NCBI GenBank assembly: GCA_965662845.1
Contig: CBFIJD010000011.1
Coordinates: 10,002-74,001, forward strand
Length of the DNA: 64,000 nucleotides
Direction of reading: 5' to 3'
Origin: an uncultured bacterium
GTDB taxonomy: Bacteria > SAR324 > NAC60-12
Shown: piece after piece, positions 9,198 to 46,143 of the stretch
Position numbering within the stretch: position 1 is the stretch's first letter
Layout: each line of letters begins with the position of its first letter
The notes under the pieces: model-generated
Databases searched by the model: none
What the model saw: only the letters and a program-made list of their open reading frames with translations
Told to the model about the DNA's origin: nothing
Made by a program: the position numbers and the translations under genes

Positions 9198-10016
9198 ATG
9201 CCAGAACTCCCCTCTGCCCTACAAAACGCTTGGCGACAAGCCGCGATCTCAGGACAAATCACAGCCCTCACGGGAGCCGGAATTTCCGCTGAGAGTGGCA
9301 TCCCCACATTTCGTGGGAAAGACGGCTATTGGACGGTCGGCTCCGCGGTGTACACTCCGACAGAAATGGCTACGATAGCGCGGTTTCGCGAGATCCCGTG
9401 GGACGTGTGGCACTGGTATCTTTATCGGTGCAACATCTGTCATAGCGCGAAGCCCAACGCAGGGCACGCGGCCCTCGTCGAATTAGAACAGCGCCTACAA
9501 GAGCGCTTCTGCCTGATCACCCAAAATGTGGACGGTTTGCACCTCGCCGCAGGCAGTTCTCCCGAACGAACCTATGAAATTCACGGCAATATCTCTTTTA
9601 TGCGCCGAGTGGATGAGGACAGGGCCCCGCTGGTGAGAATCCCCCCAGAGTGCCTCAAGGTCTCACAGGCAGAACCACTCTCCCAAGAAATCCGAAACCG
9701 GCTGCAAGATGCTGACGGCACTCTGATGCGTCCCCACGTGCTGTGGTTTGACGAATATTACAATGAGCATCACTTTCGGTTTCAGAGTTCGATTCAGCGG
9801 GCGCTGCAGACCGATGTGCTGGTGACGATCGGCACAACTGGAGCGACGAATCTTCCGCGTCAAATTGTTGCGCAGGTACTCGAGCGCGGCGGAACCGTGA
9901 TTGACATCAATCCGGAGGAGAACGTGTTTGCGACGATGGCGCAGCGGGAGGGTGGCTTTTTTCTGCAAGGAAGCAGCGGCGAGCTATTGCCGCGGTTGGT
10001 GGAGCTGCTCAAATAA
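9198..10016 (+). CDS. cobB: Sir2-family NAD-dependent protein deacylase (CobB-like)
   Basis: TGAGISAESGIPTFRG, TQNVDGLH, EIHGN, RPHVLWFDE and IGT motifs. Confidence 0.9.
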   Translation: MPELPSALQNAWRQAAISGQITALTGAGISAESGIPTFRGKDGYWTVGSAVYTPTEMATIARFREIPWDVWHWYLYRCNICHSAKPNAGHAALVELEQRLQERFCLITQNVDGLHLAAGSSPERTYEIHGNISFMRRVDEDRAPLVRIPPECLKVSQAEPLSQEIRNRLQDADGTLMRPHVLWFDEYYNEHHFRFQSSIQRALQTDVLVTIGTTGATNLPRQIVAQVLERGGTVIDINPEENVFATMAQREGGFFLQGSSGELLPRLVELLK

Positions 10017-10929
10017 GTTCGGCGAGCTGGCGCAGGCGTTTCTTCTCCAGTTCAGTTGCGAGATAGCGCGGCGCCCAAGCGACCAACTCTTTGACGTAAG
10101 ATTCTGGGAACCCTAGGTGCTGAGCGGCTTTCGTGAAGTAGGCAAGCTCAGAGTCTACAATGCGACCATCCACCGCCGCCACACGGATCAAAAGCAGCAA
10201 CAGCTCAAAGGCTTTAGAGCGCTCTACCTCGATCTCCGGAAGCTCGGCCTGCTGTCGTTTGCGCAACAAATCAGCGATCATTTCGGTTTCTTCATGGGCT
10301 TCCATCGACTTGAGGAGACTCTCCAACAATTCGGCTTCTTCTGATTCCACAATCCCGTCTGCCAGCACGATGCTGCCTGCCGCCGCTAAAAACCACTGCC
10401 GCTCCTGCTCGGTCAACGAAGAGAGAAACAAGCTGTCTTGATCGGTTTTGAGAGAACGCTGTGTGGTAATCATGCGGGAGGTGTTCATGACCAAGCGGCG
10501 ATGCAACCGTTGGTTGAGCGAGGTGATTTGATCGCTCATCCGATGAAGCGTGAGGTGGGTCGCGATGCGCATGCGGACTTCGTCTAGTTGCAGCGGTTTG
10601 GTGAGATAGTCTAACCCGCCCACTTCATAGCCTGTGCGTTTGTCTTCTGCTTCGCCCAGCGCCGTGAGAAAAATGACCGGAACTTCGCTCGTCAGCGGAT
10701 CTTCTTTGAGACGTTTGCAAGTGGTGTAGCCGTCAATGCCCGGCATCGTCACATCGATTAACATCAGTTCAGGTTGATGTTCACGTGCGAGATCCAGCCC
10801 CCGATAGCCGTTATTGGCAACCAAGACTTCATAGCCGTCGCTACGGAGCATGTTGGGTAACACGTCAGCGTCCTGCATGTTGTCATCCACAATCAAAATG
10901 CGTCCCTGATAGTTGATCGCGTTCGGCAT
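10009..10929 (-). CDS. response regulator: receiver domain fused to a C-terminal TerB-like domain
   Basis: ILIVDD, DVTMPGIDG, FLTA and YLTKP receiver motifs. C-terminal LADGIVESEE...AAVDGRIVDSE is a TerB-like pair. Confidence 0.8.
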   Translation of the reverse strand: MPNAINYQGRILIVDDNMQDADVLPNMLRSDGYEVLVANNGYRGLDLAREHQPELMLIDVTMPGIDGYTTCKRLKEDPLTSEVPVIFLTALGEAEDKRTGYEVGGLDYLTKPLQLDEVRMRIATHLTLHRMSDQITSLNQRLHRRLVMNTSRMITTQRSLKTDQDSLFLSSLTEQERQWFLAAAGSIVLADGIVESEEAELLESLLKSMEAHEETEMIADLLRKRQQAELPEIEVERSKAFELLLLLIRVAAVDGRIVDSELAYFTKAAQHLGFPESYVKELVAWAPRYLATELEKKRLRQLAELI

Positions 10930-13864: not shown

Positions 13865-15553
13865 TTAGTTCGGCAGGAGGTTTGTGCCCGTGAAGTTGTC
13901 TTGCTCAGAAAGAATGTGGAACTGGCGCACTTGATGCGACATAAAATCGGCTTGTTCCTTGAGTGTGTTGCTTGCCATCGTCGTTTGCCCCACACCGAAC
14001 TGCGTCTGTTGGATCCCATCATTGAGTTGCTTCAGCCCCAGATAGATCTCCTCGGCTCCTTTGGCCTGCTGCCCGCTCGCTTCGGAAATGTTGCGGACCA
14101 CGCTGCCGACTTTCTCCATTCCTTCCACAATGGTGCGCAGTTGATCTGAGGTCTCATCGGAGAGCTTCACGCCTCGTTCGATGGAAGACACGGACTTTTG
14201 CACCAGCTCGGTGATCTCGTGCGCCGCTTGTGCGCTGTGCTGGGCGAGTGCGCGCACCTCTTCGGCCACCACTGCGAAGCCTTTGCCGTGTTCTCCTGCG
14301 CGAGCCGCTTCTACAGAGGCGTTGATGGCAAGCACGTTGGTTTGAAAGGCGATTTCTTCGATCGTCTTGATGATGCGCGAAATGTTCTCGGAGTTGTTCT
14401 GAATCTCGTGTACGGCTTCGACCATCTGGTTCATTTGCTGCTGCCCTTGTTCGGCTTTGCGTTGGGCGTCGGTGGCGAGTTCGTCTGCTTCTGAGGAATA
14501 GTCCGAGTTTTGTTGGGCTTGTTCTGAGATCTCGCGCATGGAAGCGGAGATCTCTTCCAGACTGGCAGCCTGGGTTGTTGAGGCCTGTTCGAGTTGTTGG
14601 CTGGACTGCAGCAAGCTCACCGCGCTGCTGTTGAACTCTTCGCTGTGATGCTGAATGTTGCGGATGATCTGGGTGAGGCTCTGGTTGGTTTGACGAAGAT
14701 AGTCGCGAATCACACCACGCGCTTCAAAAGTGAAGTCTCCCGAAGACAGGCGTGAGAACGCGGCGAGGACGTCATCTTGAAGATTTGCGGCGAGGCGATC
14801 AACGGCTTTCGCGACCTGCCCGACTTCGTCTTGGGACTCAATCTCTGTGCGCTTGTCGAGCTGGCCACGGTCGATGCTGGTCACGACATCGAGCACTTTG
14901 CGCAAGGGACGAGAGACTTGGAACGCGTTGAACACGGCGAAGCCCATCGCGGCGACGCTCAACAACCCGATGACGACTCCGAGCCATGTGAGCGAATCAA
15001 TAATCGCTGCGTCTGGCGTGTCGGCTGTGTAGACGCCGTATGTGAGCGTCCAGCCCCACGGAGCGAAGTAGCGCCCATAGCTCAGCTTCTCATGCAAGCC
15101 GTCTATACCGGGCTTGTTCCACATGTAGTACAAGAACCCCTCCCCCTCATTCCTAGCCATACGGGTCAAGTCCGCTACGATGCGTACGCCGTTCTCATCT
15201 TTGAGGTTGCTGAGGTTCTTGCCTACTAAGCTGGGTTGAGCTGGGTGGATGACCATGTTCATGTCTTGATCAGTGACAAAAACATAAGATTGCCGGTAGC
15301 GGAAGTTGTTGATGATCTGCGTGGCTTGACGCTTTGCCTCTTCGTCGGTGATCGTGCCGCTGCGCACTTGAGAAACAAGCTGGTCAAGTACGGCACTTAA
15401 CTGCAGCACAGGGATGCGCAAATTCTCTTTTTGGGATTCTTCGGTCTCATCCAAGATGAGCGGCAGACCAATGCCGAAAAAGCCGATGAGCGGCAGCAGC
15501 AAGGTCAAGGATGCGATGACCATGATTTTGTTGAAGATGCTCAGGTTCTTCAC
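13865..15553 (-). CDS. methyl-accepting chemotaxis protein with periplasmic Cache_2-type sensor and HAMP
   Basis: TM, Cache (MVIHP, DENG, GFLYYMWNKPG), TM, HAMP (DEVGQVA). Signalling hairpin IAFQTNVLAINASVEAARAGEHGKGFAVVAEEVR. Confidence 0.93.
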   Translation of the reverse strand: MKNLSIFNKIMVIASLTLLLPLIGFFGIGLPLILDETEESQKENLRIPVLQLSAVLDQLVSQVRSGTITDEEAKRQATQIINNFRYRQSYVFVTDQDMNMVIHPAQPSLVGKNLSNLKDENGVRIVADLTRMARNEGEGFLYYMWNKPGIDGLHEKLSYGRYFAPWGWTLTYGVYTADTPDAAIIDSLTWLGVVIGLLSVAAMGFAVFNAFQVSRPLRKVLDVVTSIDRGQLDKRTEIESQDEVGQVAKAVDRLAANLQDDVLAAFSRLSSGDFTFEARGVIRDYLRQTNQSLTQIIRNIQHHSEEFNSSAVSLLQSSQQLEQASTTQAASLEEISASMREISEQAQQNSDYSSEADELATDAQRKAEQGQQQMNQMVEAVHEIQNNSENISRIIKTIEEIAFQTNVLAINASVEAARAGEHGKGFAVVAEEVRALAQHSAQAAHEITELVQKSVSSIERGVKLSDETSDQLRTIVEGMEKVGSVVRNISEASGQQAKGAEEIYLGLKQLNDGIQQTQFGVGQTTMASNTLKEQADFMSHQVRQFHILSEQDNFTGTNLLPN

Positions 15554-16017: not shown

Positions 16018-16461
16018 ATGAACCCTCAAGAGATTTGCGTACAACTGACCAAAGACAAGCACCTTGCGCATTGGACGCCTGACGAATGGAAGGCGCTATT
16101 GCGCGTGTTGTATGGTCTTTACAAAGCGGATGGGAATGTGTCTGAGGAAGAGATGCAGGACTTGCAGCACCGCATGGCGATCATGGGGATAGAAGCGGGG
16201 CACTGGGAGCGGCTGACCCTGAAGCAGGCTTTGATGGTGCTGAAGGAAGACAAAGCCAAGCACGAGCTGATGTATTTGATTTTAGCGACCGCAGTCTTTC
16301 AGGACGGACGCTACACAGATGAGGAACAAGATTATTTGGAGCGACTGATCGAGGAATACGGGCTCAGCCGAACGCGCATGGATCGTCATTTACGAGCCGT
16401 GCAGGCGACGCATGTCTCAACCCTGCTTGAAGAGTGGCTGAAAGAGCACACCCCGAGCTAG
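16018..16461 (+). CDS. TerB-like protein
   Basis: Two helical repeats with KADGNVSEEE and FQDGRYTDEE motifs. Confidence 0.65.
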   Translation: MNPQEICVQLTKDKHLAHWTPDEWKALLRVLYGLYKADGNVSEEEMQDLQHRMAIMGIEAGHWERLTLKQALMVLKEDKAKHELMYLILATAVFQDGRYTDEEQDYLERLIEEYGLSRTRMDRHLRAVQATHVSTLLEEWLKEHTPS

Positions 16462-27710: not shown

Positions 27711-28784
27711 ATGGCAGCAGAAAACGACGGTCAGGAGAAAACCGAGGCCCCGACGGAGCGCAAGCGGGAGAAGTCTCGCGAAGAAGGACAAGTTGCGTTC
27801 AGTCGGGAGTTGCCCTCTGCGGCCTTGTTAGCCGCCGCAGCGGTGACCTTTGCCGTGACAGGCGGGGCCTTGCTGCAGGCGAGCGAGGCGCTCTTTGCCG
27901 ACATCTTCCGCAATTTGGTCTTGCCGGAAGATATGACGATCAACACTCTCTACAACCTGTTGCGCACCTCTCTCGCCACCGTCATCGTGCCCCTCATTCC
28001 ATTTGGTGCTCTGATCATCGTCGTTGGGATCTTCTCTTCCGTACTGCAAGTTGGGTTTCGGCTCACCCCCAAAGCCATCGCTCCCAAATTTAGCAAGCTC
28101 AGCCCTGCCCAAGGGCTCAAGCGCATCTTTGGCACACAGGGGCTCGTGGAGCTGCTGAAGAGCATGGCGAAGCTCATCATCATCGGCTTCATCGGCTTCA
28201 TGATGTACCGCGATGAAATGCTGAGAATTAACAGCCTAGCGGTGACCTCACCAGAAAATGTGGTGATTTACAGTTTTGAAACGATTGCCGATATCACGCT
28301 GCAAATGGTTTTGGCGCTAGTGGCGATCGCGCTGTTCGATTTTTTCTATCAGCGCTGGAAGCACGAGCAAGACCTGCGCATGACCAAGCAAGAGGTCAAA
28401 GACGAGAACAAGCAGACGGAGGGCGACCCGCAGCTCAAATCGCGCATTCGCCAGATTCAGCGTGAAATGTCTAACGCGCGGATGATGCAAGAAGTCCCCA
28501 AAGCGGACGCCGTCGTCGTCAATCCAACGCACTTTGCGGTCGCGATCAAATATGATCGAGAGACCATGGCGGCCCCTGAGGTGATCGCCAAGGGGATCGA
28601 TTACATGGCGTTACGGATCAAGAAAGTGGCGAAAGAGCATGACGTCGCTGTGTTAGAGCGACCACAACTAGCGCGGGAGATGTACGCTGCGATCGAGATC
28701 GGTCAACCCATCCCAGAGCGCTTCTTCAAAGCAGTTGCAGAAATTCTTGCCTATGTTTATCGTCTCCGCAAAAAGAAGAAATGA
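27711..28784 (+). CDS. flhB: flagellar export protein FlhB
   Basis: EKTEAPT, MTKQEVKDE.KQTEGDP and the NPTH autocleavage motif. Confidence 0.97.
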   Translation: MAAENDGQEKTEAPTERKREKSREEGQVAFSRELPSAALLAAAAVTFAVTGGALLQASEALFADIFRNLVLPEDMTINTLYNLLRTSLATVIVPLIPFGALIIVVGIFSSVLQVGFRLTPKAIAPKFSKLSPAQGLKRIFGTQGLVELLKSMAKLIIIGFIGFMMYRDEMLRINSLAVTSPENVVIYSFETIADITLQMVLALVAIALFDFFYQRWKHEQDLRMTKQEVKDENKQTEGDPQLKSRIRQIQREMSNARMMQEVPKADAVVVNPTHFAVAIKYDRETMAAPEVIAKGIDYMALRIKKVAKEHDVAVLERPQLAREMYAAIEIGQPIPERFFKAVAEILAYVYRLRKKKK

Positions 28785-28932: not shown

Positions 28933-31029
28933 GTGGCCGCAGGAAGCAATTCCCTCTCTGTAAATAATTTGGCGCGCAACTCCGATATCCTGCTCGCGGC
29001 AGGAGTGATCGGCATGCTGATGATCATCGTGGTGCCGCTGCCTGAGATCATCCTTGATCTGTTGCTGGCAATGAGCATCACGTTGGGATTGCTGATCCTC
29101 TTCGTCTCTCTCTTCACGGCCAACGCGCTAGAGTTCTCCTCGTTTCCCACGGTCTTACTGATCTCCACGCTGTTTAGGCTCTCTCTGAATATCGCGTCAA
29201 CTCGTCTCATTTTGTTAAATGGGAATAAAGGATTAGATGCGGCTGGTTCGGTGATTAAATCGTTCGGGGAGTTTGTGGTCGGGGGCAATCAGATTGTCGG
29301 GATTATCATCTTTTTGATCTTGGTCATCATCAACTTCGTCGTGATTACCAAAGGAGCGACGCGTATCGCCGAGGTCGCCGCGCGTTTCACCTTGGACGCC
29401 ATGCCTGGTAAGCAGATGGCGATTGATGCGGACTTGAACGCGGGGTTGATTGATGAGACACAGGCGCGCAACCGTCGACAGACGATCCAGCGTGAATCCG
29501 ATTTTTACGGGGCGATGGACGGGGCGAGTAAGTTCGTGCGTGGGGACGCGATTGCGGGCTTGATCATTACGTTCATCAATATTCTCGGCGGGCTGCTGGT
29601 TGGGATCACGCAGTATGGGATGACCTCTGGAGACGCGTTCGAGACGTACTCGATTTTAACGATTGGGGATGGCTTGGTCTCGCAGATCCCATCCCTGATC
29701 ATTTCGATCGCGGCGGGTATCGCGGTCACCAAAGCTTCTGCTGAGAACAAGCTCTCTGTTGACCTCTCTGAGCAAATTTTTCGCAACACCCAAGCGCTTT
29801 ATGTCTCCTCTGCGATCTTGGTCGCCTTTGGCCTGATCCCTGGGCTGCCGACCGTCCCATTCTTGTTGTTATCTGCCATGACCTTCGGGCTGGCCTATGC
29901 CGCGAAACAGAGCGCCGCGCGCTTGGCGATCGCGGAACAAGAAGCGACGCAAATTCAACTGCAACAGGAGATTGAAGAAGAGCCGGAGAACATCGAATCG
30001 CTGCTGCCGATTGACTTGCTGGGCTTGGAGTTGGGATATGGGCTCATCCCGCTGGTAGATGAAGAACAAGACGGAGAGTTGTTAAAGCGCATCAAAGCGA
30101 TCCGACGTCAAATGGCGACTGATTATGGGTATGTGGTGCCGCCGATGCACATCAAGGATAACCTTGAGCTGTCACCCGGCGAATACTCCATCACGATTAA
30201 GGGCATTGAGGTTGCGCGAGCAGAGCTGATGGTGGGACATTTTCTAGCGATGAAGACTGGAGATGTGGACGAAGACATCCACGGGGTAGACACTGTGGAG
30301 CCCGCGTTTGGCTTGCCTGCGATCTGGATCTCTGCTGATGACGAAGAACGCGCCCAATTTGCAGGATACACGGTTGTTGATCTACCAACCGTGCTGGCCA
30401 CCCACATTACGGAAGTGCTCAAAAACCACGCCCATGAGTTCTTGGGGCGCCAGGAAACTCAGAAATTGTTGGATACTTTTGGGCAATCCAATCCCAAGGT
30501 CGTGGAAGAATTGGTGCCTGGACAACTCAACCTTGGGGTCGTCCAGAAGGTCTTGCAGAATCTCTTGCGCGAGCAAGTCTCGATTCGCGATTTGCACACG
30601 GTCTTGGAGACCCTCGCGGATGTCTCCAACTTAACCAAAGACCCCGACTTGCTCACAGAGCATGTGCGTCAGGCCCTGTCGCGTCAACTAACACGCCAGT
30701 ATCAAACCCCTGACGGCACCCTGCCGCTGATCACGATGAGCCAAGAGCTCGAAAATCAAATCGCCTCTGCTATCCAAGATACTGGCCATGGCACCTATCT
30801 TGGGCTGAACCCAAACATGGCCCAGTTGATCATCAACAGCACCGAGGCGCTGATCGAGCAGTTCGAGATCAACAATTACCAACCTGTCTTGCTTTGTTCG
30901 CCGCTGATTCGACCACACGTCAAGAAATTGCTCGAACGCTTCATCCCGAACCTTGTCGTGCTCTCGCACAATGAAGTTTCGCCAGATGTGCGCATCGAAG
31001 CCCTTGGCGTCGTGGAACTGAATACCTAA
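28933..31029 (+). CDS. flhA: flagellar export protein FlhA
   Basis: RIAEVAARFTLDAMPGKQMAIDADLNAG and FYGAMDGASKFVRGD. Confidence 0.97.
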   Translation: MAAGSNSLSVNNLARNSDILLAAGVIGMLMIIVVPLPEIILDLLLAMSITLGLLILFVSLFTANALEFSSFPTVLLISTLFRLSLNIASTRLILLNGNKGLDAAGSVIKSFGEFVVGGNQIVGIIIFLILVIINFVVITKGATRIAEVAARFTLDAMPGKQMAIDADLNAGLIDETQARNRRQTIQRESDFYGAMDGASKFVRGDAIAGLIITFINILGGLLVGITQYGMTSGDAFETYSILTIGDGLVSQIPSLIISIAAGIAVTKASAENKLSVDLSEQIFRNTQALYVSSAILVAFGLIPGLPTVPFLLLSAMTFGLAYAAKQSAARLAIAEQEATQIQLQQEIEEEPENIESLLPIDLLGLELGYGLIPLVDEEQDGELLKRIKAIRRQMATDYGYVVPPMHIKDNLELSPGEYSITIKGIEVARAELMVGHFLAMKTGDVDEDIHGVDTVEPAFGLPAIWISADDEERAQFAGYTVVDLPTVLATHITEVLKNHAHEFLGRQETQKLLDTFGQSNPKVVEELVPGQLNLGVVQKVLQNLLREQVSIRDLHTVLETLADVSNLTKDPDLLTEHVRQALSRQLTRQYQTPDGTLPLITMSQELENQIASAIQDTGHGTYLGLNPNMAQLIINSTEALIEQFEINNYQPVLLCSPLIRPHVKKLLERFIPNLVVLSHNEVSPDVRIEALGVVELNT

Positions 31030-31051: not shown

Positions 31052-32389
31052 ATGAACCTCAAACGCTATCGCGTCCAAAACATCCAGGAAGCGCTTCAGC
31101 TCATCAAAAAAGACCTTGGCCCCGAAGCCGTAATCGTCTCCACTCGTCAAGTGAAAGAAGGCAACAAAACCTTCGGCCTCTTCGCGAAGACAATGCTTGA
31201 AGTGACCGCTGCTAAAGACGACAAAAGCTCTCCAAAACCAGCCTCAGCTGCGAACCTCACCGGCTATCGCGCAACGGTCAATGGGGCGCCTAAGCCCGAC
31301 GGTGTCACGACTCCCACAGCGACAGCAACGCAACCACCGGTGGCCAAAGCGCCTGCGTCGGCCCCTGCCGTGCACACGAACCCTTCTAGCAACCCGCTCT
31401 CTGCCGACTCACAACGGATGCTGCAGCCCCTGCGTCAAGAGATTCAGGACTTGCGCGAGATGATCCGAACGTTAGGCGATCGCTCCGCCAGCTACGAAGA
31501 GCAGACGGTCGCTCAGCTCAAGCAAGAGCTTGGGGAAATGCGCTACATGCTGCACTCGCTCGCTTCGCGCTCCTCCTTGCAAGATGATCTGCAGCTTCCA
31601 GAAAATTTGATGGTGCTCTATCAGCAGCTGCGTTTCAGCGGCATGGAAGACAAGTTTGCCAGACGCCTGATGCTGGAGGCCCAGAAGAATATTGCGGAAG
31701 AAGATCTGCAAAACTTTTCGTATGTCAAAATTTTCATTGCGCGCATGCTGATGAAAATTGTGAAGACAACGCGAGGCGTCGAGAACATTACGTCTCCACA
31801 AAAGATTTTCTCGCTGATTGGGCCGACCGGCGTGGGCAAAACAACGACTGCGGCAAAGATCGCTTCAGAGCAATTGCTGCGCTACAAGCGCCGGGTCGCT
31901 CTCATCACGATTGATACCTTCCGCATCGCCGCCGTTGAGCAGCTGCGCACGTACGCCAAGATCATCAATGTCCCGTTGAGCATTGTTGCCGACAAAGCGG
32001 ATTTAGATCGCGCGATCGCGAGCTACTCAGATTATGACGTGATCGTGATTGACACAGGGGGCTGTTCCCAGCGGGATGACGCGCAGATGTTCGAGTTGAG
32101 AGAAATGTTCGACGAGCGCGGGCGTCTGCACAACATCTTAGTGCTGAGCACAACGACCAAAGACAGCGACATGAATGAGATCACGCGGCGCTTTGGCATC
32201 ATCCCCATCGACGGCGTGATCTTCACGAAACTTGACGAGAGTTCATCTTATGGCTCGATCTTCAATCATTCGATCCGCTTCAAAAAACCAATCTCTTTTC
32301 TAACGACTGGCCAAAAAGTACCCGAAGATATTGAGGTCGCGACCAAAGAGAGGTTAGTTGACTTGATGCTGAACATTTCTGGCAACTGA
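31052..32389 (+). CDS. flhF: SRP-type GTPase FlhF
   Basis: LGPEAVIVSTR, GPTGVGKTTT, DTFRIAAVEQL, TKLDE and GQKVPEDI. Confidence 0.95.
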   Translation: MNLKRYRVQNIQEALQLIKKDLGPEAVIVSTRQVKEGNKTFGLFAKTMLEVTAAKDDKSSPKPASAANLTGYRATVNGAPKPDGVTTPTATATQPPVAKAPASAPAVHTNPSSNPLSADSQRMLQPLRQEIQDLREMIRTLGDRSASYEEQTVAQLKQELGEMRYMLHSLASRSSLQDDLQLPENLMVLYQQLRFSGMEDKFARRLMLEAQKNIAEEDLQNFSYVKIFIARMLMKIVKTTRGVENITSPQKIFSLIGPTGVGKTTTAAKIASEQLLRYKRRVALITIDTFRIAAVEQLRTYAKIINVPLSIVADKADLDRAIASYSDYDVIVIDTGGCSQRDDAQMFELREMFDERGRLHNILVLSTTTKDSDMNEITRRFGIIPIDGVIFTKLDESSSYGSIFNHSIRFKKPISFLTTGQKVPEDIEVATKERLVDLMLNISGN

Positions 32390-32413
32390 CGCACTCCATC
32401 GTAAACACACTCC

Positions 32414-33301
32414 ATGAACGATCAGGCAAGTTCCTTGCGACGCATTGTGGGAGAAACAACGACCGCGTCCGCTTCGACGCGGGTGCGTGTGATGTGCATC
32501 ACCAGCGGCAAAGGGGGGGTCGGTAAAACCAACATCTCCATCAATCTCGCGATTGCGCTCGCTTCGCTCAATCGTCGTGTTTTCCTGTTAGACGCCGACC
32601 TAGGCTTGGCAAATGTCGATGTATTGCTAAACCTCACTCCGATGTACACGATGGAACACGTGATGTCGGGCGAGAAGGGAATCAACGACATCATCTTGGA
32701 TGGACCGGGCAACATCAAAATTCTGCCCTCCAGCTCCGGGGTGGTGGAAATGACAGAGCTTGACCGCGAGCAGCAGGTTCATTTGTTCCGCAAGTTGGGA
32801 GAAATTGAGCGCGAAATTGACTATCTGATCATTGACACCGGCGCCGGCATTGCTCCCCATACGCTGCGCTTTGTGGCCAATTCGGACGAGATTTTGATTG
32901 TGGCAACTCCAGAGCCCTCGTCGATGACAGACGCCTATTCTTTGATCAAAATCATGATCACTCGCTATCAAATCACTCGCTTCCGCGTCATCTCGAACAA
33001 CGTGGTCTCCGCCGCGGAAGGTCGCCAAGTCTATGAACGGCTCCAAAAGGTGACGCGAGACTTCTTGAAAACCGAGATTGACTATGTGGGCTATGTGTTG
33101 AAAGACCCCCTGCTGGTGAAATCAGTCAGGGCACAACGTCCGTTGCTGGAAGCTTATCCTGACGCCCCCGCTGCTCGATGTATCATGGCGCTGGCGCGGT
33201 ATTTGGAACATTTGGAAGTCCCCGACGTCGAGAGCTTAGCCTCGAAAACCGGGGCTCGCCGCAGCTTTTGGGAGCGCCTAGTGCGCTGGCAGCGCAAATG
33301 A
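32414..33301 (+). CDS. flhG: MinD-like flagellar number regulator FlhG/FleN
   Basis: DQASSLR, SGKGGVGKT, DADLGLANVD and DTGAG. Directly downstream of flhF. Confidence 0.93.
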   Translation: MNDQASSLRRIVGETTTASASTRVRVMCITSGKGGVGKTNISINLAIALASLNRRVFLLDADLGLANVDVLLNLTPMYTMEHVMSGEKGINDIILDGPGNIKILPSSSGVVEMTELDREQQVHLFRKLGEIEREIDYLIIDTGAGIAPHTLRFVANSDEILIVATPEPSSMTDAYSLIKIMITRYQITRFRVISNNVVSAAEGRQVYERLQKVTRDFLKTEIDYVGYVLKDPLLVKSVRAQRPLLEAYPDAPAARCIMALARYLEHLEVPDVESLASKTGARRSFWERLVRWQRK

Positions 33302-33347: not shown

Positions 33348-34121
33348 ATGCTAAGGACTGCTGTGAAATCTAACCCCTACGCCGACAAATCGCAGCAAAC
33401 ACGCGAACAACTTGTGTTGAAATATGCACCGCTGTTGAAGCGCATCGTGAGCCGGATGGCTGCTCGTTTTCCCCCTGAGGTGGATCACGAAGAAGTCTAC
33501 CAAGCTGGCATGATCGGACTCCTCGATGCGGTCGATAAATATGACCCTAGCAAAGACACGCAGTTCCAGACCTATGCGGAATATCGCATCAAAGGCAGCA
33601 TTCTAGACGAACTGCGCGCGTTAGACTGGGTCCCCCGCAGTGTGCGCTCGGCAGCAACCGAGTGGGAAAAAACATGGAATGAACAGTGTAGTACCTTGGG
33701 AAGAGAGCCTACTGATCAAGAAATGGCGGGAAAGCTTGATCTGAATTTGAGCGATTATCACGACTTTGTGAGCCACGCGAGCCCGCTCTCTTTGGTTTCT
33801 ATTGACAATTTAGGTGGAGGCGGTGACGAAGGTGATGAAGGCCAAAGCCTGCTGGATGTGCTGCGAGATCCCGACGGTTCCGACCCGTTCTCCGAGCTGT
33901 CGATGCACCACCTCAAAACGCGCCTTCAAGATGCCATTGAAGAGCTGACAGAGAGAGAACAGACGATCCTCTCTCTCTATTACATCGAAGAGTTAAATAT
34001 GAAGGAAATTGCCGCCGTTTTAGGAGTTGGCGAAGCCCGTGTTTCACAGATCCACACGAAAATTATTTTGAAATTACGAGCGAAATTGAGAAGAGTGCTG
34101 GAAGTAGAAAAAGCAGCCTAA
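33348..34121 (+). CDS. fliA: RNA polymerase sigma-28 factor FliA
   Basis: GLLDAVDKYDP, YAEYRIKGSILDELRALDWVPRSVR and EARVSQIH. Confidence 0.96.
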   Translation: MLRTAVKSNPYADKSQQTREQLVLKYAPLLKRIVSRMAARFPPEVDHEEVYQAGMIGLLDAVDKYDPSKDTQFQTYAEYRIKGSILDELRALDWVPRSVRSAATEWEKTWNEQCSTLGREPTDQEMAGKLDLNLSDYHDFVSHASPLSLVSIDNLGGGGDEGDEGQSLLDVLRDPDGSDPFSELSMHHLKTRLQDAIEELTEREQTILSLYYIEELNMKEIAAVLGVGEARVSQIHTKIILKLRAKLRRVLEVEKAA

Positions 34122-35952: not shown

Positions 35953-37331
35953 TGAAGGCGATTGAACTGCACTTCGATCGAGGCTCCCTGCAGCTGAGCG
36001 GGATCACCGACGAAGTGCGCTCCCTACTCCCCGCCTTACAGTGGGACGACCGAATCGAACGCTTCCGCGCTCCCGCTTACTCTTATCACGACATCGCGCT
36101 CGCCCTTCACCGTCGGCAACTGCCTTTCGTTGACAACGCTCGTCAATTTGCTCCCTGCTCCTTTCAGCTCAAGCAACACATCCAGCCCCGAAGTTACCAA
36201 GAAGAAGCCCTCACGGCGTGGTGGCAGTCTGGAAAACGTGGTGTGGTGACGCTCCCGACCGGCGCTGGGAAAACCATCCTCGCGATCCTCGCCATTGCTC
36301 GTACGGAACGCCCCGCGCTGATACACGTCCCTACCATTGATCTGCTGCATCAGTGGCATCAACTGTTAGAGCGCTTCTTTGGGGAGAAGGTGGGGCGAAT
36401 TGGTGGAGGCTATAAGGAATGGGAGCGGCTTACCGTTTCGACTTACGACTCAGCGTTGCTGCACGTGGAGTATCGCGGGAATCAATTTGGCTTGCTGGTG
36501 TTTGACGAGTGCCATCACCTCCCTGGTGAGCAGCTGCAATACACCGCCGTTGCTTCTCTGGCTCCGTTTCGTCTCGGACTCACCGCGACGCCTGAGCGCT
36601 CTGATGGCCGAGAACAACACCTCTATCAAATTTGTGGGCCACTCTGCTACGAGGCGCATATCGACGAATTAGAAGGGCAAACTCTGGCTCCATATCGCGT
36701 CCACACGATCGAGGTGGATATGTTGCCGGAAGAGGCGGAGCAATATCAGGAGCTGCGGCAACAGTACCTGCAGTTCGTGCGACAAGAAAGAATCCGGTTC
36801 GACACTCCTGATGGTTGGCAACAGTTTGTATTTCGTAGCTCGCGCACGCCGGAAGGACGCCAGGCTTTTCAAGCGTATTTGGCGCAAAAGCAGCTCAGCC
36901 AAGCTTCTCAAGCAAAACTAGGCTGGATCTGGCGACTGTTGACGCAACATGTCGAGGATCGGTTGCTGATTTTCACGCAAGATAACGAGATGGCTTACCA
37001 AATTGGACGCCGTTTCCTGTTGCCTGTGTTGACACATCACACCAAAACCAATGAGCGAGCTCAGTTTCTGAGCAAGTTTCGAGATGGGAGTTATCCGACG
37101 TTAGTGACGTCGAAAGTGCTGAACGAGGGGGTTGATGTGCCAGAGGCCAACGTGGCGGTTGTGGTCTCAGGAAGCGGCAGCATCCGGGAGCATGTGCAGA
37201 GGTTAGGAAGAATTTTGCGGGCAAAGCCGGGGAAAGAGGCCGTGTTGTATGAGTTGATTTCAAGAGGAACCGCCGAGCTGTATGTGAACCAGCGCCGACG
37301 GCAGCATCGCGCGTATGATCGTCAGCGATAG
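35952..37331 (+). CDS. XPB/Rad25-like SF2 helicase
   Basis: PRSYQEEAL, LPTGAGKT, DECHH, LGLTATPER, LNEGVDVP and QRLGRILR. Confidence 0.9.
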   Translation: MKAIELHFDRGSLQLSGITDEVRSLLPALQWDDRIERFRAPAYSYHDIALALHRRQLPFVDNARQFAPCSFQLKQHIQPRSYQEEALTAWWQSGKRGVVTLPTGAGKTILAILAIARTERPALIHVPTIDLLHQWHQLLERFFGEKVGRIGGGYKEWERLTVSTYDSALLHVEYRGNQFGLLVFDECHHLPGEQLQYTAVASLAPFRLGLTATPERSDGREQHLYQICGPLCYEAHIDELEGQTLAPYRVHTIEVDMLPEEAEQYQELRQQYLQFVRQERIRFDTPDGWQQFVFRSSRTPEGRQAFQAYLAQKQLSQASQAKLGWIWRLLTQHVEDRLLIFTQDNEMAYQIGRRFLLPVLTHHTKTNERAQFLSKFRDGSYPTLVTSKVLNEGVDVPEANVAVVVSGSGSIREHVQRLGRILRAKPGKEAVLYELISRGTAELYVNQRRRQHRAYDRQR

Positions 37332-38401
37332 CGGTCCATGCCTCCCATTCGCTTCACGCGATCAGCCGGAGGGATAATTTCAGTGACGCGCGCTCCAAAC
37401 TTCTCTTTGTAGACCACGACTTCGCCGCGAGCGACTAGCTTCCCGTTAACAAAGACATCGAGGTCTTCTCCAACGAGACGATGCAACTCCAGCACAGAGC
37501 CTTGCCCGAGAGACAGCAAGTCGCTGATGCTCATCTTGGCTCGACCCACTTCAAAGGTCACCGTTAGCGGCATCTCGAGCAAGAAGTTGACATCCAAGTT
37601 GGGGGCTTCCTCGACGTCTCCGCCTGCGTCTCCGCCACCAGTTTGTTGCTCTACCATGTCCAGCACGTTTTGAACGTTGCCTGGGCTGACTTGGCTAGGG
37701 TCTCCTCCAGTGAGACCTCCCAAATCCATGCCGCTCGTTGGAGCGATTTTTGAGGAACTCTCAGCGAATTTTGCCGCTGCTTGCATCTGTCGCTCTTCTT
37801 CCATTTCTGGCCCATCCTCGACAGCTATTTGCCCTACACCTGCGCCCGCGCTGGCTTGGTCAAACATACTGTCAATGTCGCCTTGAGAAGTCGGCCCACT
37901 CGCGGGAGGCGCTTGGAGTTTGGAGTCGTCAAAAGCGTCGGGACTAGCTTGCACGTTGGCGAAGAGGTCATCTACGCCTGACTGCGAGGCGACATCGCCG
38001 CTGCCTGTGCTTGGCGCGGGTGAGCCCCCAGAGCCGGCTTGATCAAACAAGTCGTCGATGGAGTCTTGGGAGACGGTGCCGCTGGTGTTCGTTTTCAGCT
38101 CTGGTTCTGCGCTACCGCCGCCATCGAACAAGGCGTCAATCCCTTCCTGCCCCATGGAGCCGTCGCTCTCTATGTTCGTGGCCAAGCCACCACCGCCGCC
38201 GTCAAAGAGGGCGTCGATGTCGCCCTGTGAGGTCGGTTCGTTTGGGTTCGTAGCGGGAGCGTCGTTCTGAGCGTTATCGAACATGCTGTCGATGTCATTC
38301 TGCGAAGCCGAGCCTCCACTTGGAGCCGCGGGTTCGGGTTTAGAGTCTCCACCGCTGGGTCCAAACAGCGCGTCGATTTCGTCTTGCGACATTTCAGCCA
38401 T
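37322..38401 (-). CDS. fliN: flagellar motor switch protein FliN with a long N-terminal extension of repeated CheY-binding-like motifs
   Basis: C-terminal SpoA domain (LLEMPLTVTFEVGR...LGQGSVLEL...VNGKLVARGEVVV...FGARVTEII). GAAGGA SD before ATG38401. Confidence 0.9.
   Translation of the reverse strand: MAEMSQDEIDALFGPSGGDSKPEPAAPSGGSASQNDIDSMFDNAQNDAPATNPNEPTSQGDIDALFDGGGGGLATNIESDGSMGQEGIDALFDGGGSAEPELKTNTSGTVSQDSIDDLFDQAGSGGSPAPSTGSGDVASQSGVDDLFANVQASPDAFDDSKLQAPPASGPTSQGDIDSMFDQASAGAGVGQIAVEDGPEMEEERQMQAAAKFAESSSKIAPTSGMDLGGLTGGDPSQVSPGNVQNVLDMVEQQTGGGDAGGDVEEAPNLDVNFLLEMPLTVTFEVGRAKMSISDLLSLGQGSVLELHRLVGEDLDVFVNGKLVARGEVVVYKEKFGARVTEIIPPADRVKRMGGMDRYR
37862..38389 (-). repeat. seven degenerate protein-level repeats [SG]QxxIDxLF within fliN
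   Basis: SQDEIDALF, SQNDIDSMF, SQGDIDALF, GQEGIDALF, SQDSIDDLF, SQSGVDDLF, SQGDIDSMF. Spaced 25-33 aa by G/S/P-rich linkers. Confidence 0.9.
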
Positions 38402-38421
38402 GTTTCCTTCTCCGTTGGGGC

Positions 38422-39330
38422 TCAATCATGGAACGCAAGGGGTTGCAGCGACTCGCGAACCCAGAGCTTGCGGGGTTGTTCTAGGGATAGGTCTTCGCAG
38501 GAAGTTGGGCCTACAAATTCTTGTTGTCGTAAAATCAGTTTCCAAGCGGAAAAATCTTGCGCTCCTACCCGGAAGGCGACCTCTACGCGGCCCTCTACCG
38601 GCGCGGGGTCATCTGCGATTTGCACGTCTCCGCGCAGCTGATGGGTTCGGCAGTGTTGACGAATGTGTGTCTCTACTGCCTGCAACCAAGGAGGGCGAAA
38701 AGAGCACCCTCGGTACAATTCAGGAGGAACTTCGCCGGCAAGCAGTGACGGGGCCTGTTCTGGGGTCACTCTCCCATACATGTGACCGCTGGGAAATTCC
38801 AAAAGCGTGGCGGCGAAGCGATGGCCACCTAAGTGCGTTGCTTCCCAGATCTCTGCTGGAATGTGCGCTTGCTGTGCGCTTGCACTCAAGGCTTGGAAGA
38901 CTCTCTGACCAAACTTTGCACAGCATTTATCATGCCTTCCGTGGGTGCAGACAAAGAACTGGCGTGGGCTTTCGATCGGTTTTCCATAGGCTTCAGACAT
39001 TCGCCCTTGGAGATGGGCTTCTAACACGGCGTAGATCTCTTCACGGGGAACATCCACATACTGCACTTGAGCGGGATAGGCATAGATGGTGACCGTTGCG
39101 CTAGAGGTGACTTCGGGGCTGCTGATCAACCGTGTTAAAATCTTGCCGTATTTCTCGCTATTTTCATCGAGCCACTCGCGAAAGTGGGGGGGGAAGCCCC
39201 CTTTAGAATTGACCAAAGCCTTGTCGCCCCAACAGGTTTTGGGCCAAGTGATGAAGAAGAAATGTTCGGCAAAGGGAGCCGTTCCCGCGAGGGGTTCTTG
39301 TTGTTCTGAGGACAATTGGCTGCAATACAT
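38422..39330 (-). CDS. sucrase/ferredoxin-like protein (Apd1/Aim32-type His2Cys2 [2Fe-2S])
   Basis: VCTHGRHDKCCAKFG and WEATHLGGHRFAAT motifs. Confidence 0.85.
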   Translation of the reverse strand: MYCSQLSSEQQEPLAGTAPFAEHFFFITWPKTCWGDKALVNSKGGFPPHFREWLDENSEKYGKILTRLISSPEVTSSATVTIYAYPAQVQYVDVPREEIYAVLEAHLQGRMSEAYGKPIESPRQFFVCTHGRHDKCCAKFGQRVFQALSASAQQAHIPAEIWEATHLGGHRFAATLLEFPSGHMYGRVTPEQAPSLLAGEVPPELYRGCSFRPPWLQAVETHIRQHCRTHQLRGDVQIADDPAPVEGRVEVAFRVGAQDFSAWKLILRQQEFVGPTSCEDLSLEQPRKLWVRESLQPLAFHD

Positions 39331-44930: not shown

Positions 44931-45135
44931 GACATCTTTCCCAAAAGTGAAGAGAAGTTTCCCGCAGAATGCAGTCATTGTGCCCCCTAAATGCCGTGGA
45001 AGGTCGTGAATTAGGAGGCGGAACCGCGTTTCTGCAAATAAGCGGCGGAAAGCGGTTTGCATTTTGCTGGGGATCTCTACATACTGCGCGCATTTGAGCA
45101 CGCTTCACCATTTTTCGCGTCTGCAAGGAGCCTGC

Positions 45136-46143
45136 ATGGGTGTTGGAAAATTAACTGGTCCCAAGAAAGCGGCCATTTTGTTGTTGGCCCTCGGCGAAGA
45201 GGGCGCGGCTGAAGTTATGCAGAATCTCGAAGAAGCCGAGATTCAGCAGGTGGGCTATTATATGACCCGCTTTAATGACATTTCTGCGGAAGAGCTTGAT
45301 ACGGTCTTAGAAGAGTTTTACCGCCAGTCCGTCATGAGCGACGGGGGGGTTGACATCAATGCTTCTCCCGATTTCGTTCGCAACGCTCTCGCTAAGGCGC
45401 TCGGCCCTGACAAAGCGAAAGAGATTGGCGAGCAAATGAGCGCTTCGCAGGATGATTCGGGGCTTGATTCTCTCAACTACATCGACCCGATCATGATCTC
45501 GAATTACATTCGCGGGGAGCATCCACAAACGATTGCGCTGATCATCTCCTATCTGAGCAACACCGACCAAGCCGCGACGGTCTTGCGGACGCTCCCAGAG
45601 AATCTTCAAGCGGACGTGGTCTATCGTATGGCGACCCTAGAGAGTATTCCGCCCGGCGTTGTCAACGAATTGAACGACGTCCTCTTCGAGGAAATGAAAG
45701 CCGCAGGTAGCATGGTCACCAAAGTGGGAGGCGTCCAGCCCGTAGCCGAAATTTTGAACGCCATCGACAAAGCTTCCGAGACGCGCATTCTCTCGACCAT
45801 TGAAGAGAGCAATCCTGACTTGGCAGAGCAGATTCGCGAGCTGATGTTTACCTTTGAAGATCTCACGCTCATTGATAGCAAGCAGATGCAGACGATCCTC
45901 AAAGACATCGACAAAGCAGATCTGGCCATGGCCATGAAGACGGCCAGTGATGCGGTCAAAGAGCTGATCTTCAGCTCAATGTCCTCCCGCGCGGCAGAAA
46001 TGCTCCAAGACGACCTTGAGAACATGGGGCCCGTCAAAGTCGCAGACGTCGAAGGCGCTCAGCAAAAAATCATCAAAGTCGTCAAAAAACTCGAAGAAGA
46101 AGGCAAAATCGTGGTCGCCGGTGGTGGCGAAGACATCGTCTGA
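45136..46143 (+). CDS. fliG: flagellar motor switch protein FliG
   Basis: LTGPKKAAILLLALG, EHPQTIALI, GGVQPVAEILN, MFTFEDL and MSSRAA. Confidence 0.97.
   Translation: MGVGKLTGPKKAAILLLALGEEGAAEVMQNLEEAEIQQVGYYMTRFNDISAEELDTVLEEFYRQSVMSDGGVDINASPDFVRNALAKALGPDKAKEIGEQMSASQDDSGLDSLNYIDPIMISNYIRGEHPQTIALIISYLSNTDQAATVLRTLPENLQADVVYRMATLESIPPGVVNELNDVLFEEMKAAGSMVTKVGGVQPVAEILNAIDKASETRILSTIEESNPDLAEQIRELMFTFEDLTLIDSKQMQTILKDIDKADLAMAMKTASDAVKELIFSSMSSRAAEMLQDDLENMGPVKVADVEGAQQKIIKVVKKLEEEGKIVVAGGGEDIV

Follow-up and report, generated by a model that had tools for sequence, protein, structure and literature searches.

Textbook accounts of the flagellar motor place a single EIDAL motif on the switch protein FliM as the docking site of phosphorylated CheY (CheY~P). 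In Escherichia coli, CheY~P binds the FliM N-terminus first and then two switch sites, the FliM middle domain and FliN (PMC7957414), and the motor of this species contains 120 ± 26 FliN molecules (PMC4161238). The C-terminal region of the phosphatase CheZ is described as a CheY~P-binding region (part of PMC7750401), and FliY of Bacillus combines an EIDAL motif with CheC-like parts (part of PMC12826062). Here we describe a gene for a long-arm FliN in a stretch of 64,000 nucleotides from an uncultured SAR324 bacterium of the NAC60-12 lineage (GCA_965662845.1, contig CBFIJD010000011.1, positions 10,002 to 74,001 of the forward strand; hereafter the window). The arm of the deduced protein carries seven EIDAL-type motifs in tandem. 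From its sequence we propose, with moderate confidence, that the long FliN equips the C-ring with an array of several docking sites for CheY~P. Multi-copy or tandem docking motifs on FliN, FliY or CheZ were not found described in the literature, subscription journals and supplementary files lying outside the search.

The long FliN shares its ground plan with FliY of Bacillus subtilis and Thermotoga, a second FliN-type paralogue of the C-ring in which an N-terminal EIDAL-type peptide is likewise combined with a C-terminal SpoA domain. FliY coexists with a FliM that retains its own EIDAL motif, as the long FliN does here. The two proteins differ in the number of docking motifs, seven in the long FliN and one in FliY, and in the CheC/CheX domain, which the long FliN does not have. 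The sequence-only reading of this DNA had already set the protein apart from FliY, and the domain searches agreed. A Pfam scan of the 359-amino-acid protein found no CheC, CheX or FliM middle domain; its sole match at E ≤ 0.01 was SpoA (FliMN_C, PF01052) at amino acids (aa) 274-343, with an E-value of 3.8e-23 and a score of 81.6 bits against a cut-off of 23.8. Since SpoA is present without a CheC domain, the protein is of the FliN type and not a Bacillus-type FliY. The statement that canonical FliN carries no such motif was too strong, as single EIDAL motifs occur sporadically in FliN and FliY according to passages of PMC6946799.

Compared with the canonical short FliN (E. coli type, and the 144-aa FliN of the same genome), the long FliN possesses an additional arm of 270 aa and a conserved tail of 16 aa. 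Its SpoA region (aa 254-350) is 49% identical to the 144-aa FliN. The short fliN is part of a fliL-fliL-fliN-fliO-fliP cluster, whereas the long fliN is in no flagellar operon.

The seven repeats

37322..38401, minus strand: long-arm fliN paralogue (P0001), 359 aa plus stop codon, translation stop-free
38363..38389, minus strand: repeat 1, SQDEIDALF, aa 5-13, N-terminal in the FliM_N/FliY_N position; AlphaFold2 helix aa 6-13
38279..38305, minus strand: repeat 2, SQNDIDSMF, aa 33-41; AlphaFold2 helix aa 34-42
38204..38230, minus strand: repeat 3, SQGDIDALF, aa 58-66
38126..38152, minus strand: repeat 4, GQEGIDALF, aa 84-92; AlphaFold2 helix aa 86-92
38045..38071, minus strand: repeat 5, SQDSIDDLF, aa 111-119; AlphaFold2 helix aa 115-118
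37961..37987, minus strand: repeat 6, SQSGVDDLF, aa 139-147, nearest to the C-terminus QSDVDDLL of CheZ from the same genome
37862..37888, minus strand: repeat 7, SQGDIDSMF, aa 172-180

Seven docking-like motifs had been counted ahead of the SpoA domain by the sequence-only reading, and seven is exactly the number of matches to the pattern [SG]Q..[IV]D..F. The copies start at aa 5, 33, 58, 84, 111, 139 and 172 and are spaced by 28, 25, 26, 27, 28 and 33 aa. By sequence match, MAEMSQDEIDALF at aa 1-13 is an N-terminal EIDAL-type peptide. The arm is rich in G, D, S, A, Q and P. When the N-terminal 270 aa were shuffled 100,000 times, one motif match appeared in 147 shuffles and two or more in none. 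Among 47,014 six-frame open reading frames (ORFs) of at least 40 aa in the genome, only the long fliN had at least two matches. A looser pattern, applied to ORFs of at least 80 aa, returned ten matches: the seven of the long FliN, one FliM N-terminus and two elsewhere. AlphaFold2, run on a 32-row alignment with a mean predicted local distance difference test (pLDDT) score of 57.8 and linkers below 50, placed short helices at four of the seven motifs (1, 2, 4 and 5) in an otherwise disordered arm.

At the DNA level the repeat copies are only 60-72% identical, which rules out recent slippage as their origin. Copy-to-copy identity over the nine codons of the motif amounts to 0.71, 0.74 and 0.44 at codon positions 1, 2 and 3, and within the seven motifs four different codons are used for Ser, two for Gln, three for Leu and two for Phe. 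The low identity at the third position relative to the first and second suggests old copies, each under purifying selection. The flanks of the motifs (33-36 nt) show 32-36% identity, the level of unrelated sequences. When 27 repeat units of five genomes were aligned, Q and D proved invariant and I and L were conserved at 90% or more, whereas the flanks were unconserved. The comparison of motif and linker had been set beforehand as a test on which the docking interpretation could fail; the motif is kept, the linkers are not.

The region was also traced in other assemblies. In each of two sequencing runs of one sample, a single contig spans the repeats without a gap. One of these runs may be the source of the DNA analysed here; the contig of the second differs at a single base, 38045, a synonymous change from TTT to TTC in the Phe codon of repeat 5. 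The study also included a second sample, which contributed five identical pieces of the repeat region. An assembly artefact as the origin of the repeats was ruled out by these separate contigs.

Translation start and domain layout

38406..38413, minus strand: Shine-Dalgarno-like GGAGAAGG ahead of ATG 38401, with a spacing of 4 nt, read from the sequence
37583..37861, minus strand: middle region, aa 181-273, low complexity, without Pfam match; AlphaFold2 helices aa 200-215 and 243-251
37373..37582, minus strand: SpoA/FliMN_C domain, aa 274-343, on which Pfam and the genome profile search agree; AlphaFold2 pLDDT 70-88
37325..37372, minus strand: C-terminal tail PPADRVKRMGGMDRYR, aa 344-359; orthologues keep R[VI]KxMxGxD

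The longest ORF of the locus comprises 367 aa and begins at TTG 38425; the stop codon TGA of the upstream gene is at 38422-38424. ATG 38401, the start chosen by the sequence-only reading, is preferred over TTG 38425 because GGAGAAGG precedes it by 4 nt and because orthologues of the protein start with MAEMSQ or MADMSQ. Downstream, none of the in-frame ATG, GTG and TTG codons at aa 150-280 has a convincing Shine-Dalgarno sequence or one comparable to GGAGAAGG, and an internal translation start was rejected as unsupported.

Some injectisome SpoA proteins use internal starts. An internal start could leave the arm untranslated and only the SpoA part functional; the arm might equally be a neutral low-complexity expansion, a reading that suits its composition and an evolutionarily labile copy number. 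We consider both versions very improbable. The strong Shine-Dalgarno sequence stands before ATG 38401 and not before an internal codon, the N-terminus MAEMSQ is conserved in orthologues, every copy combines synonymous variation with amino acid conservation, and it is the motifs that are conserved and not the linkers.

Beyond the SpoA domain, P345 and R348 in the C-terminal tail are nearly invariant among long-arm orthologues. The tail sequence R[VI]KxMxG[MF]D was observed in all long-arm orthologues and is absent from short FliN.

Likeness to FliM and CheZ docking peptides

The assignment of the repeats to the CheY~P-docking class, made by the sequence-only reading, is borne out by their likeness to peptides of the same genome. 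Two FliM proteins retain EIDAL-type N-termini, LSQNEVDALL and LSNDEIHALL, which answers the question whether FliM had kept its own docking peptide. The C-terminus of CheZ reads KKNQSDVDDLLNQLGF and contains NQSDVDDLL. The consensus of the FliM N-terminal and CheZ C-terminal peptides, S-Q-x-x-I/V-D-x-L-L/F, is identical to that of the repeats, and the long FliN carries the docking signature S/T-Q-x-x-I/V-D-x-L-L/F in a disordered, helix-prone segment. Repeat 1 occupies the extreme N-terminus, as in FliM, and the VDDL/IDDL signature of the CheZ tail recurs in repeats 5 and 6. The likeness, which is one of sequence only, has its limits: all seven repeats end in F, the FliM and CheZ peptides of this genome in L, six of the seven repeats are internal, and the carrier is FliN and not FliM or CheZ.

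Tandem motifs on CheZ and FliY

To our knowledge, CheY~P is the only known ligand of the C-terminal tail of CheZ. A search with the arm only (aa 1-190) yielded four matches among 3777 candidates, all of them CheZ. These four proteins have the PF04344 domain and the DxxxQ motif, and their C-terminal tails contain four to five tandem SQDDID[AS][LM]F units. One member of the CheZ cluster is named CheZ by its source. In species-representative genomes, 37 of 80 alphaproteobacterial CheZ loci carried at least two copies, in a sample that leans to motif holders because the motif itself was included among the six scan patterns. No copy was present at 11 loci, one at 32, two at 24, three at 4, four at 5 and five at 4. 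The loci derive from Terasakiella (including cultured strains), Kordiimonas, Roseibium, Pleomorphomonas and others.

In alphaproteobacterial CheZ, for example of Terasakiella and Kordiimonas, the SQDDID[AS][LM]F units follow each other at distances of 20-35 aa with P/A/G-rich linkers and in up to five copies, an arrangement resembling the arm of the long FliN. The CheZ array is C-terminal and sits on a phosphatase with the DxxxQ active-site motif, whereas the array of the long FliN sits on a motor protein. Indirectly, the case for CheY~P as the putative ligand of the unit is strongest here, where the tandem unit takes the place of the single peptide of CheZ.

The array also occurs on further FliN-type proteins. 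Among the best 150 representatives examined from a library-wide HMMER search were a 298-aa FliN with only 43% identity in the SpoA domain and five to six motif copies, and a 498-aa FliY (P0222) with CheC and CheX matches and four to five copies.

Orthologues and motif variation

Of 8000 candidates scored in the search with the whole protein, 615 matched at E ≤ 1e-3. The 120 matches listed were 198-299 aa long, and the named ones were FliN proteins of metagenome-assembled genomes from the SAR324 cluster or 'Deltaproteobacteria'. These 120 homologues bear the precomputed Pfam label PF28396.1; since homologues lacking an EIDAL arm bear it too, the repeats are probably not what this label describes.

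An orthologue of the long fliN at E ≤ 1e-20 was present in 57 of 61 related genomes, most of which also carry a second, short FliN. Strict motifs were counted in the orthologue arms as xQxx[IVL][DN]x[LMI][FLM]. The counts leave out G050 as well as G001 (gene cut at the contig end), G014 (arm masked), both G004 and G006 (288-aa paralogue only), and G013, G022, G039 and G044 (no match). The survey of repeat numbers that had been suggested for FliN orthologues gave 0 to 12 strict copies. The genome of the window (G000) has seven. Five congeners have a protein of 223 aa with one strict copy and two degenerate copies without Q. Strict copies in other genera of the same family numbered four (g3), six (g7), five (g8), twelve (g9, 438 aa) and three (g10), and none in g2, g4, g11 and g12, where three to four D[LM][DE]SL[VM]-like motifs were present. 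Fourteen genomes of a sister family had no strict copy, and many of their arms carried three to five tandem LDxDLxxML-type motifs. Five genomes of a third family had no strict copy and two to four DPFEAA motifs. The multi-copy arm is a lineage trait and not a unique oddity.

Long FliN proteins of sister families (L187 from G040, L188 from G053, L198 from G047, L178 from G060, and L185, L190, L192 and L193) have other tandem motifs, with arrays of four VSLDGDLEDMLAG, three ITLDSDLESMLGD or two to four VDPFEAAQA. It seems that the long FliN arm is an ancient multivalent display in which the motif has been swapped.

In the 438-aa FliN with twelve copies (L046, G016:C57), little or no difference separates three consecutive units, PMDQGNIDALLESAGGGATE. 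Their near-identity indicates a very recent duplication of units and an expansion that is ongoing in some lineages.

The congeners carry a further long FliN, a 288-aa paralogue (L038 from G006, P0061 and about 60 near-identical proteins). Its SpoA domain is 71% identical, and its arm is unrelated and of a non-EIDAL type. A tblastn search did not find this paralogue in the 95%-complete genome of the window.

The variety of motifs bears on a second alternative, in which the arm, a generic multivalent array of acidic-amphipathic character, has a partner other than CheY or FlhG and came to resemble EIDAL by convergence in this lineage. Candidate partners would be another motor component, an export component (FliH-type) or a stator-associated one; the arm might also act as an intramolecular mask of the hydrophobic patch of SpoA. 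Across the order and class, all orthologues have disordered acidic arms with tandem motifs that differ by family (D[LM][DE]SL[VM], LDxDLxxML, DPFEAA), which suggests that the function of the arm is older than its strict EIDAL form. The tail R[VI]KxMxGxD and the middle helices, both of them conserved, also speak for such an array. We nevertheless regard it as unlikely, for S/G-Q-x-x-I/V-D-x-L/M-F, preserved in each of the seven copies, is exactly the signature of the FliM N-terminal and CheZ C-terminal peptides of the same genome, and in other bacteria the motif and the tail peptide of CheZ are, to judge by their sequences, interchangeable.

Motif copy number and CheY paralogues

CheY-type genes were counted at E ≤ 1e-25, and both counts were available for thirty-three genomes. 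The six genomes with at least three strict copies (G000, G010, G015, G016, G017 and G023) contain 3, 4, 7, 5, 8 and 4 CheY-type genes, respectively. The 27 genomes with at most one strict copy contain zero to two, some of these low-copy genomes being incomplete. The clearest independent contrast lies within the genus of the window, with seven copies and three CheY-type genes on one side and one copy and zero to one CheY-type gene on the other. The trend is statistically weak and fits a link to CheY. Together, the tandem motif in CheZ tails and the copy number running alongside the CheY-type genes provide good indirect support for CheY as the probable ligand.

Proposed role on the C-ring

In the proposed docking array, the SpoA domain would build the long FliN into the FliM/FliN base of the switch, and the disordered arm of about 270 aa would display seven short amphipathic peptides of the EIDAL class. 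Each peptide could probably dock one CheY~P on its alpha4-beta5-alpha5 face. With tens to about 100 FliN per ring, a motor could offer hundreds of weak CheY~P sites; even if the long FliN took only a third of the FliN positions, several hundred peptides on linkers of 16-24 residues would result. Weak and independent binding may then work as an antenna, raising the local concentration and dwell time of CheY~P near the switching sites of FliM and FliN. Alternatively, the arms could form a decoy or titration buffer that competes with the FliM N-terminus and so creates a threshold. Several CheY paralogues or pathways may compete at the arms of one motor, and the repeat variants might, as the sequence-only reading suggested, bind different paralogues.

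A number of observations weigh against this proposal. CheY~P binding by the repeats is read from sequence, and EIDAL motifs also bind FlhG, the gene of which is present in the window. The genome contains ten SpoA genes including the short FliN, so that membership of the long FliN in the C-ring is what we infer, and the long fliN sits among unrelated genes (ScpA, sucrase/ferredoxin-like, XPB helicase). The copy-number trend derives from perhaps two independent lineage contrasts. Kinship and genome size confound it: the high-copy genera possibly belong to a single clade, and larger genomes (5.3-9.7 Mb) occur in the high-copy relatives. The tandem arms of the sister families, with three to five LDxDLxxML or two to four DPFEAA motifs, occur with only one to two CheY-type genes; therefore multivalency itself does not track the number of CheY genes, and the ancestral partner may not have been CheY. 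A complex prediction of CheY from the same genome (30 rows) with repeat unit 3 (32 aa, 27 rows), run without controls, scored 0.03 and 0.02 against a mark of 0.32 and carries no weight for or against the proposal.

The presence of flhG leads to a third alternative, the main rival of the docking proposal and one that the sequence-only reading had not considered. The relevant genes form the following cluster.

27711-28781: flhB
28933-31026: flhA
31052-32386: flhF, SRP54-type
32414-33298, plus strand: flhG, MinD/ParA-type ATPase (Pfam AAA_31, ParA, CbiA), between flhF and the sigma factor
33348-34118: fliA-type sigma factor, in the flhB-flhA-flhF-flhG-fliA cluster

The arm may be an array that recruits FlhG and governs C-ring assembly or the number or placement of flagella rather than chemotactic signalling. 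For FliM of Shewanella putrefaciens, the EIDAL motif is described as necessary and sufficient for the interaction with FlhG (passages of bioRxiv 10.1101/2022.04.21.489128), and FlhG of B. subtilis binds FliY and not FliM (passages of PMC12826062). The locus combines EIDAL motifs on a FliN-type protein with an flhF-flhG pair (window 31052-33298) at a distance of 4-6 kb. The same tandem motif, however, also forms the C-terminal tails of CheZ phosphatases, and we know of no link between CheZ phosphatases and FlhG. The strict copies vary between 0 and 12 among relatives, flhG being present in one copy as counted in the window, and strict copy number follows the CheY-type gene count. We therefore judge an FlhG-dedicated array to be quite unlikely. 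Binding of CheY and of FlhG is not mutually exclusive, and FlhG may share the repeats.

Returning to CheY~P docking, a broader proposition would be that tandem arrays on FliN, FliY and CheZ form a general, fast-evolving module of chemotaxis with a copy number (1 to 12 or more) that selection adjusts. Around the motor, this module would form a cloud of hundreds of weak sites that titrates and concentrates CheY~P, sets the threshold and steepness of switching and lets CheY paralogues of different chemosensory pathways compete at a single flagellum. This generalization is tentative, and we think it more doubtful than the proposal for the long FliN itself. What sets the finding apart is that a docking peptide of known type and two familiar scaffolds, FliN and FliY, are joined in a multivalent array that recurs across protein contexts. 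Motor ultrasensitivity and the integration of several pathways are long-standing problems, and nearly all work on them concerns systems in which each FliM has a single docking peptide. If the proposition is true, FliN arms with 0-12 motifs and CheZ tails with 1-5 constitute a natural titration series of docking-site valency, and this series, which on the CheZ side includes cultured Terasakiella, would allow direct testing of tethering, local concentration and decoy titration. For annotation, 'FliN' in these lineages should not be equated with FliN of E. coli.

Genomic surroundings and motility genes

45064-46140: fliG

The long fliN lies 3-10 kb from the flhB-flhA-flhF-flhG-fliA cluster and 7 kb from fliG. 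It is placed between the gene of an XPB-type helicase, which is encoded on the opposite strand, and three genes of its own strand: a sucrase/ferredoxin-like gene, scpA and the gene of a secretin. The genome (3.2 Mb in 129 contigs, 95% complete) encodes a flagellum, with fliL, fliO, fliP, fliR and fliM present outside the window; FliG has two matches and FlhA one. In the chemotaxis complement, the CheW domain was matched 17 times, and five of these matches fall in frames of CheA size (657-865 aa). The complement further comprises 76 receiver domains (E ≤ 1e-10), two CheX-like matches and one CheZ, and a profile search of this 95%-complete genome for CheC (PF04509) gave no match. A canonical CheY of 126 aa (P0267) matches CheY chains in the PDB, among them the sequence of entry 1f4v, at E-values of 1e-52 to 5e-47. 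On another contig, two CheY paralogues lie next to each other and share 53% and 49% identity with P0267.

The ten SpoA-domain matches of the genome include the 144-aa FliN, the two EIDAL-bearing FliM and several SpoA proteins of 100-125 aa. A FliM-like protein adjoins a 288-aa SpoA protein with an acidic arm, and this pair has no EIDAL motif. It was observed that four or five of the ten SpoA genes in this single-FlhA genome encode small FliN-like proteins. SpoA loci of the genome (G000) are located as follows, with the contig before the colon.

C8:81403-81693, SpoA locus
C8:76247-76471, SpoA locus
C4:116075-116281, SpoA locus
C5:80793-80999, SpoA locus
C102:670-882, SpoA locus
C43:15215-16341, SpoA locus
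C20:19807-20019, SpoA locus
C27:34788-35000, SpoA locus

Elsewhere in the window, a gene at 10012-10929 (minus strand) encodes a receiver domain fused to a TerB-like domain, an unusual output for a response regulator. A gene for a methyl-accepting chemotaxis protein (13868-15553) is flanked by this receiver-TerB fusion and by a second TerB-like ORF at 16018-16458 (plus strand).

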